From sequence record NC_103192.1: DNA of 64,000 nt, one strand, 5' to 3'. Source of the DNA: a phage. Made by a program: the position numbers and the translations under genes. The notes below the pieces were generated by a model that did no database searches, had not been told where the DNA came from, and saw only the letters and a list, made by a program, of their open reading frames with translations. Shown here piece after piece: positions 8,490-15,333 of the stretch; the stretch's first letter is position 1; the number at the start of each line of letters is the position of its first letter.

Positions 8490-8506
8490 AGTGTAATGAT
8501 TACACT
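8490..8506 (+). promoter_or_regulatory. 17-bp palindrome AGTGTAAT-G-ATTACACT (candidate operator)
   Basis: perfect 8-bp inverted arms around one central base, starting 6 nt after the TATAAT. Confidence 0.3.
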
Positions 8507-8546
8507 GCGTGTTTGATATCCGTGCACAGATATTAAGAGGAAACAA

Positions 8547-9923
8547 ATGCCATATTTAGATAAAGTGGTAGATGTTACAGTTAACCTCGGAACCCAACCT
8601 ATTGACACTGTAGGTTTCGAAACTCCCCTGTTCATCGCTATCCACAACAACTTTACTGAGCGAGCTCGTGTATATGCGGAGCTGGATCAGATGGTGGAGG
8701 ATGGTTTCGCACAAGGCTCTGCGGCGTATGAGTTTGCAGCAAAAGCTTTTGGTGGTGTATTCCCTCCACAATACGTTATGATCGGCAGACAGGCTAAAGA
8801 AAAAACCACCGTAGATTTTAAAGGTATTGCTGCTGCAGCCGATACCGATGTCGTAATGACTATTGCAAAAGGTGGCTACAATACTTCTTTGATAGTTCCT
8901 ATCTCTGGTGGGACAGGTGCAACTCAGATTGCAGAATCAATGAAGACTAAAATCGAAGCAGATGATAACTTGAACGATATCACTGTAGAGGCTGCTGATG
9001 GTGTTATCACCATCACTGGTGACTGTACTGTTGGTTATCATACTGGTAACTATACAATCAAAAATATCGCCAGTTCTGAAAAACCTTCTACAGTAGTTGA
9101 TAAGATCAATGCTGAGCGTGATAATTGGTACTTCCTGTGCCATGAAGACCACACCGACATTGAAGCATGTGCTAAGTGGGCTCAGGCCAATTATAAGCTG
9201 CACGTCTACTCTACTGCAGAAGATGTGACTGGCAAAGATAGTAACATCGCTACCAAACTGAAAGCTGCACAATATGACAGTGTTGGCATGTACGATCCTC
9301 GTGCAGATAAGGACTTCCCGGAGGGTGGTATCATAGGTGCTATGGCATCCAACGATCCGTCCTACGGTGACAGCTTGCACCTAAAACAGATGCCAGGTGT
9401 GATTGCACCATCTCTGACTTTAACTCAGCGTATGGCGATTTGGGAAAACCACGTTAACTTCTACAGAATGATTAACGGTGTTGGCGCTTTCTGGGAAGGT
9501 AAGTGTGCTTCAGGTCAGTATGCAGACGCTATTCGTTTTGCACACTGGATCAAGTTCAGATCTGAAGAATCCATGTTTGGGTACATGCATCGCCGCTCCA
9601 ATATGGGTTTAAGTATGAAGATGTCTGATGATGATCTTCCGGTTATCAAGTCTGTTCTGATGAACAACCCGATCAATACTGGCATTAAGAATGGCGCGAT
9701 CCTGACAGGTTTTGACGAAGACAACAATGTGTTCTACGACCCGATCATCACAGTTCCTAAACGTGCAGAGATCCCAACCAATCAGTTGGCTGCTCGTGTT
9801 CTGGAAGGTGTGAAAGTAGAACTGGTGTATAATAACGCCCTGCACTTCGTTCGTATCCGGATCAACGTCCTTCTGGACAAAGTTGGTTCTAAATCCACCA
9901 ATGCTGTTGCAATGACTGAATAA
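8547..9923 (+). CDS. putative tail sheath protein
   Basis: 458 aa, strong RBS; immediately followed by a 157-aa tube-sized gene, then chaperones and tape measure (myovirus order); no diagnostic motif verified. Confidence 0.5.
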   Translation: MPYLDKVVDVTVNLGTQPIDTVGFETPLFIAIHNNFTERARVYAELDQMVEDGFAQGSAAYEFAAKAFGGVFPPQYVMIGRQAKEKTTVDFKGIAAAADTDVVMTIAKGGYNTSLIVPISGGTGATQIAESMKTKIEADDNLNDITVEAADGVITITGDCTVGYHTGNYTIKNIASSEKPSTVVDKINAERDNWYFLCHEDHTDIEACAKWAQANYKLHVYSTAEDVTGKDSNIATKLKAAQYDSVGMYDPRADKDFPEGGIIGAMASNDPSYGDSLHLKQMPGVIAPSLTLTQRMAIWENHVNFYRMINGVGAFWEGKCASGQYADAIRFAHWIKFRSEESMFGYMHRRSNMGLSMKMSDDDLPVIKSVLMNNPINTGIKNGAILTGFDEDNNVFYDPIITVPKRAEIPTNQLAARVLEGVKVELVYNNALHFVRIRINVLLDKVGSKSTNAVAMTE

Positions 9924-9933
9924 GGAAGCCTAG

Positions 9934-10407
9934 ATGGAAACTCAAATTTTAACTCCTTATGCGTATGACCCTAAAAAGGTCAAACTGTATCTGATGCAGC
10001 AGCGTGTCACTGGCTTCGCTGCTGACACCAAGATTGTTGTTTCAAGAAACGAAGACAACATCTACCCTCATGTTGGTGTGGATGGCGAAATGTCTGCAGC
10101 CCTGTCTCGTAACCAATCTGGTGTTATGACTGTGTCTTTGCAGAACACTTCTGTATGGAACGCTTACCTTTCTGACTGGCAGAAACAGGCATCTATTACT
10201 GGTCTGGTATTCTTCCCGGTTCTACTGGAAGGTAGCCAGGGTCCTGGTATTGCTACAATCGGTTGGATCCAGAAACAGCCTGACCTGACTTACGGAACTG
10301 AAGTAGGTCAACTGGACTGGGATATCGGTATTCTGGATGCATGGCTCAACCGTGACAACATCACTGGTGCTCTCACTGGCCTCGCAGGTCTTGCAGGTAT
10401 TATCTAA
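9934..10407 (+). CDS. putative tail tube protein
   Basis: 157 aa, position between sheath-like gene and chaperones; followed by strong terminator. Confidence 0.5.
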   Translation: METQILTPYAYDPKKVKLYLMQQRVTGFAADTKIVVSRNEDNIYPHVGVDGEMSAALSRNQSGVMTVSLQNTSVWNAYLSDWQKQASITGLVFFPVLLEGSQGPGIATIGWIQKQPDLTYGTEVGQLDWDIGILDAWLNRDNITGALTGLAGLAGII

Positions 10408-10423
10408 GAGCACACCATAGCAT

Positions 10424-10456
10424 AGGCCTCACCTTCGGGTGGGGCTTTTTGCTTTT
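10424..10456 (+). terminator. rho-independent terminator with UUCG tetraloop
   Basis: stem GCCTCACC/GGTGGGGC (one G-U pair), loop TTCG, then TTTTTGCTTTT. Confidence 0.75.
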
Positions 10457-10462
10457 AGGGTT

Positions 10463-10496
10463 TTGACATATTTGTTTGTTTTTAGTATCCTATAAT
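10463..10496 (+). promoter_or_regulatory. promoter region with consensus -35 TTGACA
   Basis: TTGACA 10463-10468; -10 ambiguous (TAGTAT at 15-nt or TATAAT at 22-nt spacing). Confidence 0.4.
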
Positions 10497-10512
10497 AAAG
10501 GAGGAGACAGTC

Positions 10513-12135
10513 ATGGCTAAATTGAGTGCAGAAAGGTTTATCGAAAAAGCTCGTAGGGTTCACGGAGATAAGTACGACTATTCTCTTATAGAATACAAAA
10601 CATGCAAAGATAAGATAGAAATAGTCTGCAATACCTGTGGTAACCACTTCAACCAGACACCGGATAACCATATAAATCTAAAAAGAGGGTGCCCTGTTTG
10701 TGGAGCTGAGAGATCTGCAAAATCAAGAAAGGGTAAGAAATTCCCCCATGAGCGTGGTAACAGGTGCACTACAGAAGAGTGGATCAAGAAGGTACTAAAA
10801 AGATACCCTGAAAATGCTGAAAAGTATGATTATAGTCATGTAGTGTACAAGACCTCTGGAGATAAGGTTGAGATTCATTGCAAAATGTGCGGAAGAATAA
10901 TGCACCAGAAACCTAGCAAGCATTTATCAGGGCAAGGATGCAAGACTTGCGCAGCAAGATCTGTTTCTGCGAAAAAAGTTCCTAGCTTCCAAGAAATAGT
11001 TGAGAGATGTGTAGAAGTGCATGGTAGTGATTATGAGTATTTTGAAGACTCTTATGTGAACACCTCAACACCTATGATGATGCGCCACAAAGAGTGTGGG
11101 AATATCTTCATGCAGCGTCCTGAATTCCATTACGGGAAAGGACAAGGATGCCCTCGTTGCTGTCGAAATCAGTCTAATGGTGAGAAAGAGCTCCTGACGT
11201 TCATTAAAAGTGTGTATAGCGGCGATATTGAAGAGAACGTGCGTATTCTGGACAACTTTAAGGATCCTTCCAAGAAAAAGATGGAGCTGGACATTTATGT
11301 TCCGGAGCTTAAGCTTGCTGTGGAATATAATGGTGCCTACTGGCACTCTGTAGACAGTAAGGGGAAATGGTACCACATCCTGAAAAGGAAGGCCTGTGAA
11401 AAACAAGGTATTCGCATGTTGTCTATCTGGGATTGTGATTGGCAGGATGCTCGGAAAAGACCTATCATTGAGAGATATCTCAAGAATGCTTTAGGAGTCA
11501 AAGACGAGAAGACCGTCTATGCCAGAAAGTGCACAGTTAAAGATGTGGACAATAAAACTTACCGTGACTTTATGGAGAAAAACCACATTCAAGGGTATGC
11601 CCCCGCCAAGGAAGTGAAGAAGGGTCTGTTTACATCTGACGGCGAACTGGTAGCTTGTATGAGTTTTAAAATACTGAAAAACAGAGATCAAAAGGTAACC
11701 CCTTTCGTTATGTGGGATATGGTAAGGTATGCAACAAGCTGTAACGTTCCCGGTGGGCGTAGTAAGCTGTTTAAGCATATCCGAGAAGAGTTTAAGATGG
11801 ATCATGTTCAATCCTTCCTTGACAGAGATTACTTCACAGGCGTGTCCTATAAGGAGGATGGCTGGATTTTGGCAGAGGACGATCAGGTGTCTACTAGCTT
11901 CTGGAGCTACCGTGGTGGCAGAATGCCGAGGCAGGCGTGGTGGAAGTCAAACATCCCAGAGACACTGAAGCATCTCGGGTTGGACGAGTCCTTATACGAT
12001 CCTGAGAAAACACAAGAGTGGAATGCCAAAAATGCAGGCTGCTATATCCTTGAAAACAGTGGCAACTCCCGCTTTGAATGGCACAGCGATGAAGGTAAAA
12101 ATGATCCTGCATACTTGGATTGGTTGAAAGGTTAA
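10513..12135 (+). CDS. free-standing homing-endonuclease-like protein
   Basis: 540 aa; three N-terminal repeats each with paired CxxC motifs (CNTCGN...GCPVCG; CKMCGR...GCKTC; HKECGN...GCPRCC); central ELDIYVPELKLAVEYNGAYWHS resembles a PD-(D/E)xK (Vsr-like) nuclease core; own promoter and terminator. Confidence 0.5.
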   Translation: MAKLSAERFIEKARRVHGDKYDYSLIEYKTCKDKIEIVCNTCGNHFNQTPDNHINLKRGCPVCGAERSAKSRKGKKFPHERGNRCTTEEWIKKVLKRYPENAEKYDYSHVVYKTSGDKVEIHCKMCGRIMHQKPSKHLSGQGCKTCAARSVSAKKVPSFQEIVERCVEVHGSDYEYFEDSYVNTSTPMMMRHKECGNIFMQRPEFHYGKGQGCPRCCRNQSNGEKELLTFIKSVYSGDIEENVRILDNFKDPSKKKMELDIYVPELKLAVEYNGAYWHSVDSKGKWYHILKRKACEKQGIRMLSIWDCDWQDARKRPIIERYLKNALGVKDEKTVYARKCTVKDVDNKTYRDFMEKNHIQGYAPAKEVKKGLFTSDGELVACMSFKILKNRDQKVTPFVMWDMVRYATSCNVPGGRSKLFKHIREEFKMDHVQSFLDRDYFTGVSYKEDGWILAEDDQVSTSFWSYRGGRMPRQAWWKSNIPETLKHLGLDESLYDPEKTQEWNAKNAGCYILENSGNSRFEWHSDEGKNDPAYLDWLKG

Positions 12136-12136
12136 A

Positions 12137-12165
12137 TTGACAATGCACTATAATCATGGTAAAAT
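12137..12165 (+). promoter_or_regulatory. promoter TTGACA-17-TGgTAAAAT
   Basis: consensus -35 at 12137-12142, extended -10 at 12157-12165. Confidence 0.6.
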
Positions 12166-12208
12166 ACACAAATATGGTGCACAACATGACTAATAAGGAT
12201 GCTATAAA

Positions 12209-12682
12209 ATGGCTATAAACTTTAGACCTACAACAGAGATTGATTTAGCAGGGCACAACTTTGTGATCACCCACTGGGGACCGATGAAGGCAATGAAAAA
12301 CATGCCTAAAATCGGTAAGATTGTAGCTGTCCCGCTAGGTGCTATCGGTGGATCTATTCTCTCAGGCGGTCAGAATATGGCAGAGGTACTTCCTACAGCC
12401 CTGGCTTACCTGTTTCAAGAACTTGATGATAACTCTATTGAAGAGTTATTTAAAATCTTGTTCGAAGATATTACCGTGGATGGTGTGGATAAGCTTAACC
12501 CTGATGTTGTGTTTGCAGGGCATCTGCTGGAGATGATTAAGCTGGCAGGTAAGGTTCTGGAGGTTAACTACGGCTGTTTTTTCACACAAGACGGTTTAGG
12601 AAGCCTTCTGGAGATGTTACAGCAGATGGGTATGATTCAGCAGGTGAACAGTCTGGATCAGACTCCGGAAGAGCAGGAATAA
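12209..12682 (+). CDS. tail assembly chaperone (G-like)
   Basis: 157 aa directly upstream of the tape measure gene; contains slippery heptamer; acidic C-terminus. Confidence 0.6.
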   Translation: MAINFRPTTEIDLAGHNFVITHWGPMKAMKNMPKIGKIVAVPLGAIGGSILSGGQNMAEVLPTALAYLFQELDDNSIEELFKILFEDITVDGVDKLNPDVVFAGHLLEMIKLAGKVLEVNYGCFFTQDGLGSLLEMLQQMGMIQQVNSLDQTPEEQE

Positions 12683-12942
12683 GCAAGGTTGTTGTGAGGG
12701 CCAGTGAGTGGGCAGCCAAGAACAGTTCACTTAACTGGTTCGACTTTCTTTGGTGCAGGGTGCTCAAGAATTTCAAAGGGGAAAATTTTGAATCGCTAAA
12801 TCTTGCAGATATGGCGTATTTCCTGAAGCTCTGTGAGTATCTTGATATCGAAGAATTCCTAGATACCGTCCAAAACAGGGAAATGGAGCGGGAGCAGAAG
12901 GCTGCCGCAGCTGCTGCGAAAGCTAAGCGCAGGAGAGGATAA
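12209..12942 (+). CDS. tail assembly chaperone GT-like frameshift fusion (join 12209..12583, 12583..12942)
   Basis: predicted 244-aa product by -1 slip at 12577-12583; downstream part ends in Ala/Lys-rich tail (QKAAAAAAKAKRRRG). Confidence 0.5.
12577..12583 (+). other. -1 programmed ribosomal frameshift slippery site T_TTT_TTC
   Basis: X_XXY_YYZ heptamer in the zero frame of the chaperone ORF; the -1 frame opens at 12568 (TAA at 12565-12567) and stays open to 12942. Confidence 0.6.
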
Positions 12943-12947
12943 TCTAA

Positions 12948-12985
12948 GGGCCGGATTCCTTTTCTGGGATCTGGCCCTTTTTATT
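12948..12985 (+). terminator. stem-loop with U-tract between chaperone and tape measure genes (possible attenuator)
   Basis: GGGCCGGAU/AUCUGGCCC 9-bp stem (one G-U), 12-nt loop, then TTTTTATT. Confidence 0.4.
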
Positions 12986-12996
12986 ATGAGGAAACC

Positions 12997-15333
12997 ATGG
13001 CTACAAACAAAATAGTTGCCACAACAGTCAACAAGATTGGCTTTGAGATAGAGAACTCCTCCTACAAAAAAGCTGTAGAGAAAATTCGCAGTATTGGGAG
13101 GGAGTTCAGGAAACTAGGTGAGGATTTTAACTCAGCCAACCCCATGAGTAGATGGCAGGCGGTAGCTGTTAAAACCCAGCAGACAATGCAGCGGGTTGCC
13201 AGACAGCAATCTCAGGCAAATGCTAAACTGCACAGGGAGAGCGTAGCACAGGCCAAGAAAGAGGCTGCAGTAAGGGCTGCAATAGAACGTAGGGAGAATG
13301 CGAGACGTAAACAAGCTGTAGGTAATCTTACCGCTAAAAATCCAGAAATGGCTAGGATGCGTAAGTTCTACCAGCAGCAAGCTAAAGAGGCCAAAAAGGC
13401 TGCCAAATCTGCACCAGTGTCTTACGGCGGTTATAAGGCACCCAAGGCAAGAGTTTTGGCTAATGCCAAATCTTTCAAGTATATCCCAGGTAACCCTAAT
13501 ATGGGTGGTGTGGCTTCCGACCCTAACCTTGTGAAAGCTCAGACAGCCGCTATGAATCGTTATCATAGACAGCTAAGAAGAGACAGTAAAGCTGGTATGG
13601 ATAATAAGCTTATGTCGGATCGTGAGGCAAGGAGAACCCACCTCTACAACTCTGCGATAAGACTTTCTGCCAAGTACGGAGCCGGATTCCGTGGAAGCTT
13701 GCCAGGATACTCAGAGTTAGAGTCCAGGTTTGCTCGCGGGGAGATGAAAAAGTCAACCTTTAACGCCCACCTGTCAGCTCTGCAGTCCGGATTTAAAAGC
13801 GCCACCAGCCAAACGCTTACACTGGGTGATGCCATGAGAGACTTACGTAGGTCTGTTATTAATGCAACAGCTGCGTACACGGCTTTCTCTGGATTTACTG
13901 CTGTGAACAGATCTGGTCACATGATGGAGGGGGCAAGTGCTGCTCTTACTGCTGTTACTGGAGATCCAAACAAAGCCAACAGTGAGGTTGCGTTTGTCCA
14001 GCAAGAGGCTATGCGTCTTGGCTTTGATCTCAAATCTGGTCTTCAAGGTTACGCCCAAATGTCGGTAAACGCCAAAAACCAGATGACAAATCAGGAAGTG
14101 CATGAGCTGTTTTCTGCATATTCCCAGTATGCTGCTGCTTATGGTGCCGATGAGGTAAAATACCAGCGCGGTATTATGGCAATCCAACAGATGCTTGGCA
14201 AGGGACAAGTAATGTCCGAAGAACTGAAGCAACAACTTGCTGAAGCATTGCCCGGTGCATACGAACCTTTTATCAAGGCCACCAAAGAGGCTTTTGGTCT
14301 TTCTGAACTATCCATGGATCAGTTCATGGATATGATGAAGAAAGGTGAGGTTAAGACAGCCAAGATCATGAAGTATGTGGCTAAGTACATGAACGAGGCA
14401 TCTGCAGCTGGTTATGAAAGAATGCAGAAGTCTAACGTGCTGGCAGAAAACAGACTGAAAACCTTCATCGAACTGACTCGTCAGAAACTGTTCACTCGTT
14501 GGTCTGACGAACTAACAGAGTTCTATTATACACTAATCCGCACTGGTGAGACTCTGCAATTTGTGTGGGATGCCTCTGGTGATTTTGTTAGCGGGTTTGT
14601 GAGAGGCCTTAACTGGGTAGTTGGTGAACTAAACAACACTATAGTCAAGATCCGCATGTTTTTCCTTGAATGGGGGATTAAATGGGGATTCATAACAGCT
14701 AAGACGAAGGAATATTCTGAAGAGCTTCATGACACCTTTAGCTATGCTAAATGGGCAGGGTTTGCTGCTGCCATCATGCTGGTAGTCAACGCCCTAACAA
14801 AAGGTTTTGTCATGGCATCCATGCTTGTAAAAACCTTTAAATTCCTTAACTCTCTAAGGGGTGCAGCTGGAGCAGCAGGTGCCGCTACTACAGAAGGATC
14901 TGGTGGTGGAGCTCCGGCAGGAAAAGGTGGAGGTGGCCTCAAGACACCTGGTGGCAAAGTTGGTCTGCTCGGTAAGCTGGGCATTATCGGTACAATACTA
15001 AGCGCCGGGGAATTATTTAATGACCGTTACAACCCACTAAGTGAAAGAAATCAGCAGCTGGATACTATCAGCGATATGATTCGCAAAGATATCATATCGG
15101 GAGGTAACGGGTTTGTTAATCCTTTGGACACCTTACCGGGAGGGACTCTTCCGTTGCCAGGTGGCCCTGGTTTTGCCTCTCAATTAAGAACTATGGAAAT
15201 GCTACCTTTAGAGATCAGTGATGGGAAAATCACGCTTTCCATAGATGAGGGCGAGTTTAGCAAAATACTTGATGCAAAACTTGAGTGGGAGAACAGTAAA
15301 GATATCAACTTCATGTCTACCGACCTTTGGTAA
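12997..15333 (+). CDS. tail tape measure protein
   Basis: 778 aa, helical Ala/Gln/Lys-rich N-half, Gly-rich segment (GAAGAAGAATTEGSGGGAPAGKGGGG), directly downstream of frameshifted chaperones. Confidence 0.75.
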   Translation: MATNKIVATTVNKIGFEIENSSYKKAVEKIRSIGREFRKLGEDFNSANPMSRWQAVAVKTQQTMQRVARQQSQANAKLHRESVAQAKKEAAVRAAIERRENARRKQAVGNLTAKNPEMARMRKFYQQQAKEAKKAAKSAPVSYGGYKAPKARVLANAKSFKYIPGNPNMGGVASDPNLVKAQTAAMNRYHRQLRRDSKAGMDNKLMSDREARRTHLYNSAIRLSAKYGAGFRGSLPGYSELESRFARGEMKKSTFNAHLSALQSGFKSATSQTLTLGDAMRDLRRSVINATAAYTAFSGFTAVNRSGHMMEGASAALTAVTGDPNKANSEVAFVQQEAMRLGFDLKSGLQGYAQMSVNAKNQMTNQEVHELFSAYSQYAAAYGADEVKYQRGIMAIQQMLGKGQVMSEELKQQLAEALPGAYEPFIKATKEAFGLSELSMDQFMDMMKKGEVKTAKIMKYVAKYMNEASAAGYERMQKSNVLAENRLKTFIELTRQKLFTRWSDELTEFYYTLIRTGETLQFVWDASGDFVSGFVRGLNWVVGELNNTIVKIRMFFLEWGIKWGFITAKTKEYSEELHDTFSYAKWAGFAAAIMLVVNALTKGFVMASMLVKTFKFLNSLRGAAGAAGAATTEGSGGGAPAGKGGGGLKTPGGKVGLLGKLGIIGTILSAGELFNDRYNPLSERNQQLDTISDMIRKDIISGGNGFVNPLDTLPGGTLPLPGGPGFASQLRTMEMLPLEISDGKITLSIDEGEFSKILDAKLEWENSKDINFMSTDLW

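Follow-up and report, generated by a model that had tools for sequence, protein, structure and literature searches.

The 64,000-nucleotide (nt) stretch of phage DNA studied here (part of NC_103192.1; hereafter the window, to which all positions refer) carries, between its tail tube and tail assembly chaperone genes, a 540-amino-acid (aa) gene that very probably encodes a free-standing homing endonuclease of the Hef / I-Bth0305I (Vsr-like, 'EDxHD') kind, residing in the tube-chaperone spacer of the genus Vequintavirus. Judging by a megablast of positions 8500-14000, the window is an rV5-like coliphage of this genus, and the phage genome has a size of 137 kb. The population signature of homing, i.e. 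site-specific presence and absence combined with an allele history discordant with that of the flanks, is observed at this locus. A preliminary description of the same DNA had already placed the 540-aa gene between the two tail genes and proposed a mobile, intein-less homing endonuclease. The open reading frame (ORF) is confirmed, intact, at 10513-12135, and mobility is now backed by a ~5-fold higher synonymous divergence than in the adjacent genes, by paralogues between nrdD and nrdG, and by four carriers against ~112 gene-free records.

Distribution of the gene and history of its alleles

The megablast returned 135 matching records, in only four of which the insert was covered: phage HMD-6, which has the same gene (99.6% aa identity), and PDX and the 'Campylobacter phage' records A147 and A135, which have a 611-616-aa variant. 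A search with the gene-free allele of phage FV3 recovered 112 records at a coverage of at least 80%, so that carriers amount to 4 of ~116 close records. From the start of the tube gene to the end of the chaperone gene the gene-free allele measures 1110 bp in the sampled full-length matches, with one exception (1111 bp), and the compared region is 5501 bases long with the gene versus ~3862 without it. The alignment of the junction in related phages, which had been proposed as a check, shows that the gene is not universal: it is absent from ~112 records with 94-100% identical flanks. As a separate observation, 18 records labelled 'Campylobacter phage' (MG065644, MG065690 and others, e.g. L004) are 93-97% identical to E. 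coli Vequintavirus phages in this region; those inspected are flagged UNVERIFIED and carry no annotation, and these records are probably mislabelled or derived from contaminating coliphages.

The alleles of the gene are far older than the tube and chaperone genes beside them, because the window allele and those of PDX and A147 show a synonymous difference of 0.68-0.70 (~70%), whereas these two neighbours, compared between the same genomes, show only 0.12-0.13 (~12-13%); for the tail sheath gene the values are 0.11 (A147) to 0.28 (PDX). With a ratio of nonsynonymous to synonymous divergence (dN/dS) of ~0.06 between these alleles, the protein is, on this measure, under strong purifying selection (dN/dS 0.06). 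Between the window and HMD-6 the relation is reversed, the gene being less diverged (synonymous difference, pS, 0.045) than its flanks (0.08-0.12). The zinc-ribbon region of the protein (see below) is mosaic, and the number and type of its repeats differ between alleles: one repeat type is common to A147 and the window, PDX has it in common with a distant clade, and the first repeat is missing from the window allele.

In a more distant clade, represented by the metagenome contigs L005 and L006, orthologues with 62-67% identity occupy the same tube-chaperone position, and the -35 box of the chaperone promoter lies inside the end of the gene. L005 carries a second cassette between its tube and endonuclease genes (L005:3473-4000), an ORF of 108 aa that has a promoter (TTGACA-18-TATATT) and a terminator of its own; the ORF found no match in PHROG. 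The tube-chaperone spacer seems to be a hotspot where self-contained modules of promoter and gene are inserted. In Seunavirus and Avunavirus it is a bare stretch of 75 bp.

Members of the same family are found at several other sites. By tblastn, 1110 phage records contain the family, and in Campylobacter phages a single genome can have as many as 12 copies; annotations among the relatives include 'Hef-like homing endonuclease' and 'nuclease/acetyltransferase'; within the 64-kb window the protein matched only itself, i.e. no paralogue was found there. Paralogues with 46-53% identity lie between nrdD and nrdG on contigs of 141 kb and 40 kb, and in Bacillus phages members of PHROG 559 are also encoded within group I introns that interrupt terminase genes (PMC11878797). 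The Tequatrovirus ESh36 has a 544-aa homologue between nrdA and nrdB (38% identical, E 5e-29), with similarity spanning the nuclease and the first half of the C-terminal GNAT domain. In T4 this site is the place of mobE, which Hef replaces according to the title of a paper; the ESh36 ORF would accordingly be Hef by its position, an indirect identification. Hef cleaves nrdB (PMC2988022).

On the two contigs with nrdD-nrdG paralogues (L015:89-7372 and L016:717-5495), nrdD is called as 3-5 fragments with 230-420 bp between them, a pattern suggestive of introns or of additional insertions. Ahead of nrdG, L015 also has a 157-aa ORF with DUF723 and MUG113 (T5orf172-like) domains, possibly a second mobile nuclease at that site.

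The cassette, the resident signals around it and a probable scar in gene-free alleles

The features of the locus, all on the + strand, are as follows.

9934..10407, +, tail tube gene (157 aa), the upstream neighbour; ORF matching phrog_280 (virion structural protein, 1.4e-41)
10424..10456, +, rho-independent terminator of the tube gene, a cUUCGg hairpin with T-run; resident, outside the insert
10463..10491, +, the gene's own sigma70-like promoter, TTGACA-17-TATCCT (10/12 matches)
~10469..12110, +, DNA absent from gene-free relatives according to alignments, ~1.64 kb; a variable 7-8 nt stands there instead
10499..10504, +, Shine-Dalgarno sequence AGGAGG, 8 nt ahead of the ATG, read from the sequence
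10513..12135, +, homing endonuclease gene (540 aa, ATG start), by ORF and PHROG matches
10525..11178, +, three tandem zinc-ribbon / treble-clef repeats (aa ~5-70, ~88-152 and ~158-222), presumed DNA-binding modules, by Pfam, invariant Cys and structural model
11176..11487, +, Vsr-like (EDxHD-family) nuclease domain (aa ~222-325) with conserved E224, D260, N273, H278 and H288
11500..12132, +, Mom-like GNAT-fold domain (aa ~330-540)
12115..12135, +, the gene's final 7 codons plus stop (LDWLKG*), of which gene-free relatives have a copy (19-20 of 21 bases identical)
12137..12165, +, resident promoter of the chaperone and tape-measure genes, TTGACA-17-TAAAAT with TG extension (11/12 matches)
12209..12682, +, tail assembly chaperone gene, the downstream neighbour (phrog_3840, tail assembly chaperone, 8.7e-69)

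The preliminary description had regarded the gene as bracketed by a UUCG terminator and a consensus promoter, in an insulated cassette extending from 10424 to 12165. Both signals are real. The terminator consists of a G+C-rich stem of 10 bp with a UUCG loop (10424-10447), followed by TTTTTGCTTTT (the T-run), and folds with a free energy (dG) of -22.8 kcal/mol (z = -4.4; 0/200 shuffles as stable); the promoter at 12137-12165 is near-consensus and is the top promoter-like site across the 11 kb scanned. However, alignments show that the terminator is kept in the gene-free relatives FV3, FFH2, ECP26 and rV5, and that the promoter, annotated as sigma70 promoter P51 in the rV5 record, is likewise kept in gene-free relatives. 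Therefore the cassette sits between resident signals and does not bring them, and its extent shrinks to the ~10469-12110 that relatives lack. Insulation holds for the upstream side only: the signal scan found no terminator between the endonuclease ORF and the chaperone gene, so the cassette is shielded only from upstream transcription. The earlier inventory of signals had also missed the gene's own promoter-like site at 10463-10491, whose counterparts at the same position read TTGACA-17-TATCAT in the PDX and A147 alleles and TTGACA-17-TATAGT in L006.

The -10 region of the chaperone promoter (12156-12165) carries TGGTAAAATA, which fits the motif TggTAaAAtA found upstream of late genes in rV5 (PMC3606486). 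This motif is absent from the endonuclease gene's own promoter, a difference which hints at a different timing of expression. The G+C content of the gene (0.40-0.44) is not distinctive against that of the flanks (0.43-0.50). An association with an intron or intein was rejected on the grounds of the intergenic location, the gene's own promoter and ribosome-binding site, and the lack of any intron family in an Rfam scan of 9800-12800 (E up to 1; two chance-level matches only), and the gene is indeed intein-less, as had been proposed.

Concerning the neighbouring genes, the upstream one is annotated as "tail tube" in FFH2 and in BASEL phages. An 82-aa ORF (12694-12942) follows the chaperone gene in the -1 frame relative to it, and the two might represent the usual chaperone frameshift pair; in the rV5 record the annotated ORF50 overlaps ORF51. 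At 8834-9433, in the middle of the tail sheath gene, identity to PDX falls to 85-88%, with 95-100% in the neighbouring segments; this local mosaicism has no connection with the endonuclease gene.

The gene-free alleles are not simply empty. We read eight of them (FV3, FFH2, ECP26, rV5, a window-proximal set and three IMG/VR contigs), and all eight have, after the terminator, TTGAC(A/G), a variable stretch of 7-8 nt, and TTG(A/G)ATTG(C/G)TTGAAAGGTTAA, followed by the resident promoter. None of these scar elements is present in the spacers of Seunavirus and Avunavirus. TTGAC(A/G) corresponds to the -35 box of the endonuclease gene's promoter (10463-10468), here an orphan without its -10 partner, and the last element corresponds to the gene's final 7 codons plus stop, with 19-20 of 21 bases identical. 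The centre of the scar occurs in at least four variants among the eight alleles (CACGTTC, CACCATTT, CACGGTT and AACTCTT), as read from a comparison of window 10469-12135 with the loci L003, L011, L012, L013, L019, L020 and L021. Variation among gene-free alleles extends to two positions of the retained coding tail, and the surrounding terminator and promoter are almost invariant; a remnant that decays neutrally could account for this, as could selection of alleles that resist cleavage.

The coding tail itself (DPxY[LQ]xWLK...) is common to the nrdD-nrdG paralogues, which have the same nucleotides GACTGGTTGAAAGG with a different continuation. Taken together with the scar, this makes it probable that the gene-free alleles are the product of one ancestral deletion of ~1.64 kb, from which an equal spacing of the scar would follow; it is indeed equal in seven of the eight alleles, that of ECP26 being 1 nt longer. 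Alternatively, the gene could have borrowed its last codons from the spacer. We regard this origin as less likely: the 17-aa tail, which is predicted to be helical in the structural model, exceeds the 35-nt spacer of the empty alleles, and the same nucleotides recur at nrdD-nrdG, an objection that falls away if the nrdD-nrdG copies descend from a gene at the tail locus. Under the preferred single deletion, the statement that the element 'has invaded' the structural module may have the wrong direction for most of the genus, whose empty alleles look like remnants of an earlier occupancy.

Domain architecture and comparison with known enzymes

A structural model built from 36 homologues has a mean predicted local distance difference test score (pLDDT) of 88.9 (~90 in the zinc-ribbon region). 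The three zinc-finger-like CxxC units of the preliminary description are borne out: each carries CxxC or HxxC plus CxxC ligands (in the third unit, HxxC replaces the first CxxC), and C39, C60, C63, C123, C143, C146, C213 and C216 are invariant across the 36 homologues. Pfam gives only sub-threshold matches on the 540-aa protein (DUF4379 treble clef, REase_MTES_1575, DUF723), with strong matches to DUF723 and DUF4379 in its relatives. The NUMOD modules known from I-Bth0305I found no match in the protein, its DNA-binding region being made up of the three DUF723/DUF4379 zinc ribbons.

The PD-(D/E)xK-like core proposed earlier is a nuclease core, but of the Vsr-like branch and not of the classical (D/E)xK type. 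E224, D260 and H278 are invariant in the 36 homologues, while N273 and H288 are each at least 90% conserved. In alignment with I-Bth0305I (PDB 3R3P), the prototype of the EDxHD family, D260, N273 and H278 correspond to D196, N208 and H213, and from its spacing E224 is likely the counterpart of E170. The classical PD-(D/E)xK type, as in I-Ssp6803I, was rejected given the motif E271-Y-N273 followed by H278, which resembles Vsr and I-Bth0305I. Taylor et al. include phage Hef-type endonucleases in the Vsr-like 'EDxHD' family (PMC3239194). A profile search for the nuclease family, the second check that had been proposed, likewise found a nuclease domain: the protein matches phrog_3339 ('homing endonuclease', 2e-68) and, more strongly, phrog_559 (8.5e-112), labelled 'HNH endonuclease'. 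An HNH identity was rejected, as no HNH family was matched in Pfam or NCBIfam and the nuclease domain has the Vsr fold; the PHROG 559 label is a misnomer for members that have a Vsr-fold nuclease and no HNH motif. The gene of HMD-6 (GenBank XLV54124.1, recorded as identical) is labelled 'hypothetical protein'. Both labels should become Hef-like (Vsr-fold) homing endonuclease.

The C-terminal domain, unassigned in the preliminary description, has a GNAT fold and is closest to Mom of phage Mu. A profile of 112 domain sequences aligns with Mu Mom at 81% probability (hhalign, E 1.2e-5), where an earlier comparison with a shallow profile had been weak (probability 6%). The curated Pfam Mom model PF25680 is passed by some of the direct homologues (E 1e-16 to 1e-19) and by other relatives, and the homologues P0091, P0210 and P0135 score 33.8, 39.5 and 30.6 bits at a cut-off of 27.1; the 540-aa protein itself has no match to this model at E up to 1. 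A phmmer search of the domain against 1.84 billion representatives returned 9457 clusters at E up to 0.001, and in nearly all of the best 150 of these the domain is C-terminal in proteins of ~430-830 aa. Residues of Mom essential for momylation are R111, S124, D149 and R151, and also H58, Y59 and Y159 (PMC13219725). R111 and Y159 match R405 and Y446, both invariant in the 112 homologues; D149 matches D437, which is D in 81/112 and N in 26/112; the position of R151 is D439 here, with R in 19/112; and the equivalents of S124 and H58 are ambiguous in the alignment. The domain is as strongly conserved as the nuclease.

Several known systems resemble this architecture in part. Hef ('homing endonuclease-like function') of the T4-related phage U5 and the 'Hef-like' enzymes (Sandegren, 2005) are likewise free-standing between conserved phage genes, and one of the Hef-like genes of Dickeya phage LIMEstone1 (F-LimIII/VII/VIII/X) also adjoins a tail tube gene. 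By contrast, the T4-type homologue of ESh36 lacks DUF723-type zinc ribbons, of which the 540-aa protein has three, and Hef targets nrdB, whereas the locus here is the tail tube-chaperone spacer. For I-Bth0305I, D196, N208 and H213 have their equivalents in D260, N273 and H278 here, and E170 probably in E224, but it is an intron-encoded protein of 266 aa with N-terminal NUMOD/helix-turn-helix modules and a C-terminal nuclease, while the 540-aa protein is free-standing, has zinc ribbons and an additional C-terminal GNAT domain, and has His288 in place of D222. Mu Mom (PF25680) is a GNAT-fold enzyme that adds a glycine-derived carbamoylmethyl group to N6 of adenine in DNA, and its R111, D149 and Y159 align with R405, D437 and Y446. 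In the protein described here, the putative counterpart shares one chain with a nuclease and zinc ribbons, the equivalent of R151 is Asp, and there is no com-like regulator.

Homing, self-immunity and the role of the Mom-like domain

The steps by which the gene would spread can be outlined as follows. In a mixed infection the zinc ribbons would bind DNA and supply sequence recognition, the Vsr-like domain would cut the gene-free allele at or near the tube-chaperone junction, and recombinational repair from the carrier genome would copy the 1.64-kb cassette, with the ~97% identical flanks serving as homology. The position after the tube terminator and before the chaperone promoter would leave tail gene expression intact, which may be why the cassette persists within a structural operon. 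As the gene-free alleles probably go back to one old deletion, the locus is probably in the cycle of gain, loss and regain expected of homing genes.

Some observations weigh against homing. Cleavage and homing are predictions for the 540-aa protein and its close relatives alike. The fifth EDxHD residue, D222 of I-Bth0305I, aligns with His288 (the T4-type homologue likewise has His at this position), and the conserved Mom-like domain is without an established role in homing. No base distinguishes carriers in the flanks, as detailed below. Finally, the divergence of the L005 and L006 genes (62-67% aa identity) resembles that of structural proteins (59-87%), so that a long vertical descent with loss would fit it as well. 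The last point bears on a second explanation, in which the gene is an immobile relic or a domesticated gene, inherited vertically from the subfamily ancestor, lost once in the main Vequintavirus lineage and kept in a few lineages for another function such as regulation or exclusion, without homing any longer. The single old deletion that the empty alleles resemble would fit such a history, as would the weak -10 box (TATCCT) of the gene's promoter. We nevertheless hold it to be very improbable: the contrast in synonymous difference between the gene and the tube and chaperone genes requires horizontal movement of either the gene or the flanks, the invariant catalytic residues together with the low dN/dS indicate that the nuclease is maintained, and between the window and HMD-6 it is the gene that is less diverged.

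In an alignment of 6.5 kb of flanking sequence from four carriers and four non-carriers, no base distinguishes carriers except at the junction (10469, 12113 and 12123), and the distinction at 12123 fails in a further empty allele. An immunity polymorphism in the flanks was therefore rejected, positions without a shared base being found only at the junction, and the self-immunity polymorphism that is usual for free-standing homing genes is not visible. This leaves two possibilities: a recognition site that straddles the scar junction and is split in carriers, or a self-immunity that is not based on sequence. A tentative version of the latter, which we think unlikely, is that the Mom-like domain is active and acylates or aminoacylates adenines at or near the recognition sites of the enzyme, so that carriers would be chemically immune to their own nuclease. 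If this were true, Hef-type elements would be single-chain 'restriction-modification-like' homing genes with epigenetic self-immunity, which would explain both the lack of flank polymorphism and a conservation of the GNAT domain equal to that of the nuclease.

The same domain could also serve a weapon. In this third explanation the protein is a single-chain restriction-plus-modification system, an accessory 'moron' gained and lost by ordinary recombination, whose Mom-like domain modifies adenines of the phage's own DNA while the fused nuclease degrades DNA that lacks the modification, whether it comes from the host or from a co-infecting phage. Iyer, Aravind and colleagues (2021) describe fusions of Mom with nucleases of the restriction endonuclease (REase) fold in phages, with the same pairing of nuclease and Mom-family GNAT domain, and predict for them a restriction-modification-like role as weapons (PMC7824862). 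The Mom-like nature of the C-terminal domain, the invariance of R405 and Y446 (Mom R111 and Y159), the match of D437 with D149, and a self-immunity explained by no flank polymorphism are all in its favour. Those fusions, however, come from jumbo phages, which the phage here with its 137 kb is not, and the population pattern at the present locus points to homing. Moreover, up to 12 copies per genome are the signature of homing genes and not of one protective system, the same applies to the sites by nrdD/nrdG, between nrdA and nrdB and inside introns, and zinc ribbons in variable tandem arrays suggest targets that are long and specific. R151 of Mom has no conserved counterpart (D439 here), D437 is replaced by Asn in about a quarter of the homologues (26/112), and the 540-aa protein falls below the Pfam Mom model. 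A known defence system was rejected as well, the sole PADLOC match in a scan for such systems being a weak 'homing endonuclease' model. We consider the weapon distinctly improbable as an account of this gene, although it and homing are not mutually exclusive.

As a free-standing Hef-like gene in a tail operon, the element belongs to a type that is already known, and its presence there is routine: such genes riddle large phage genomes and complicate phylogenies. The locus nevertheless offers a clean natural example of the life cycle of a homing gene, with two alleles of old age, DNA-binding modules of mosaic make-up and a deletion scar common to over 100 genomes; as the backbones hardly differ, the system is convenient for crosses. 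It also joins two differing readings of one architecture, as Hef/EDxHD homing endonucleases on the one hand and as REase-Mom fusions on the other. Most worth following are this widely shared scar and the Mom-like domain with its conservation, whose role has become directly testable with the demonstration in 2026 that Mom modifies DNA using Gly-tRNA.

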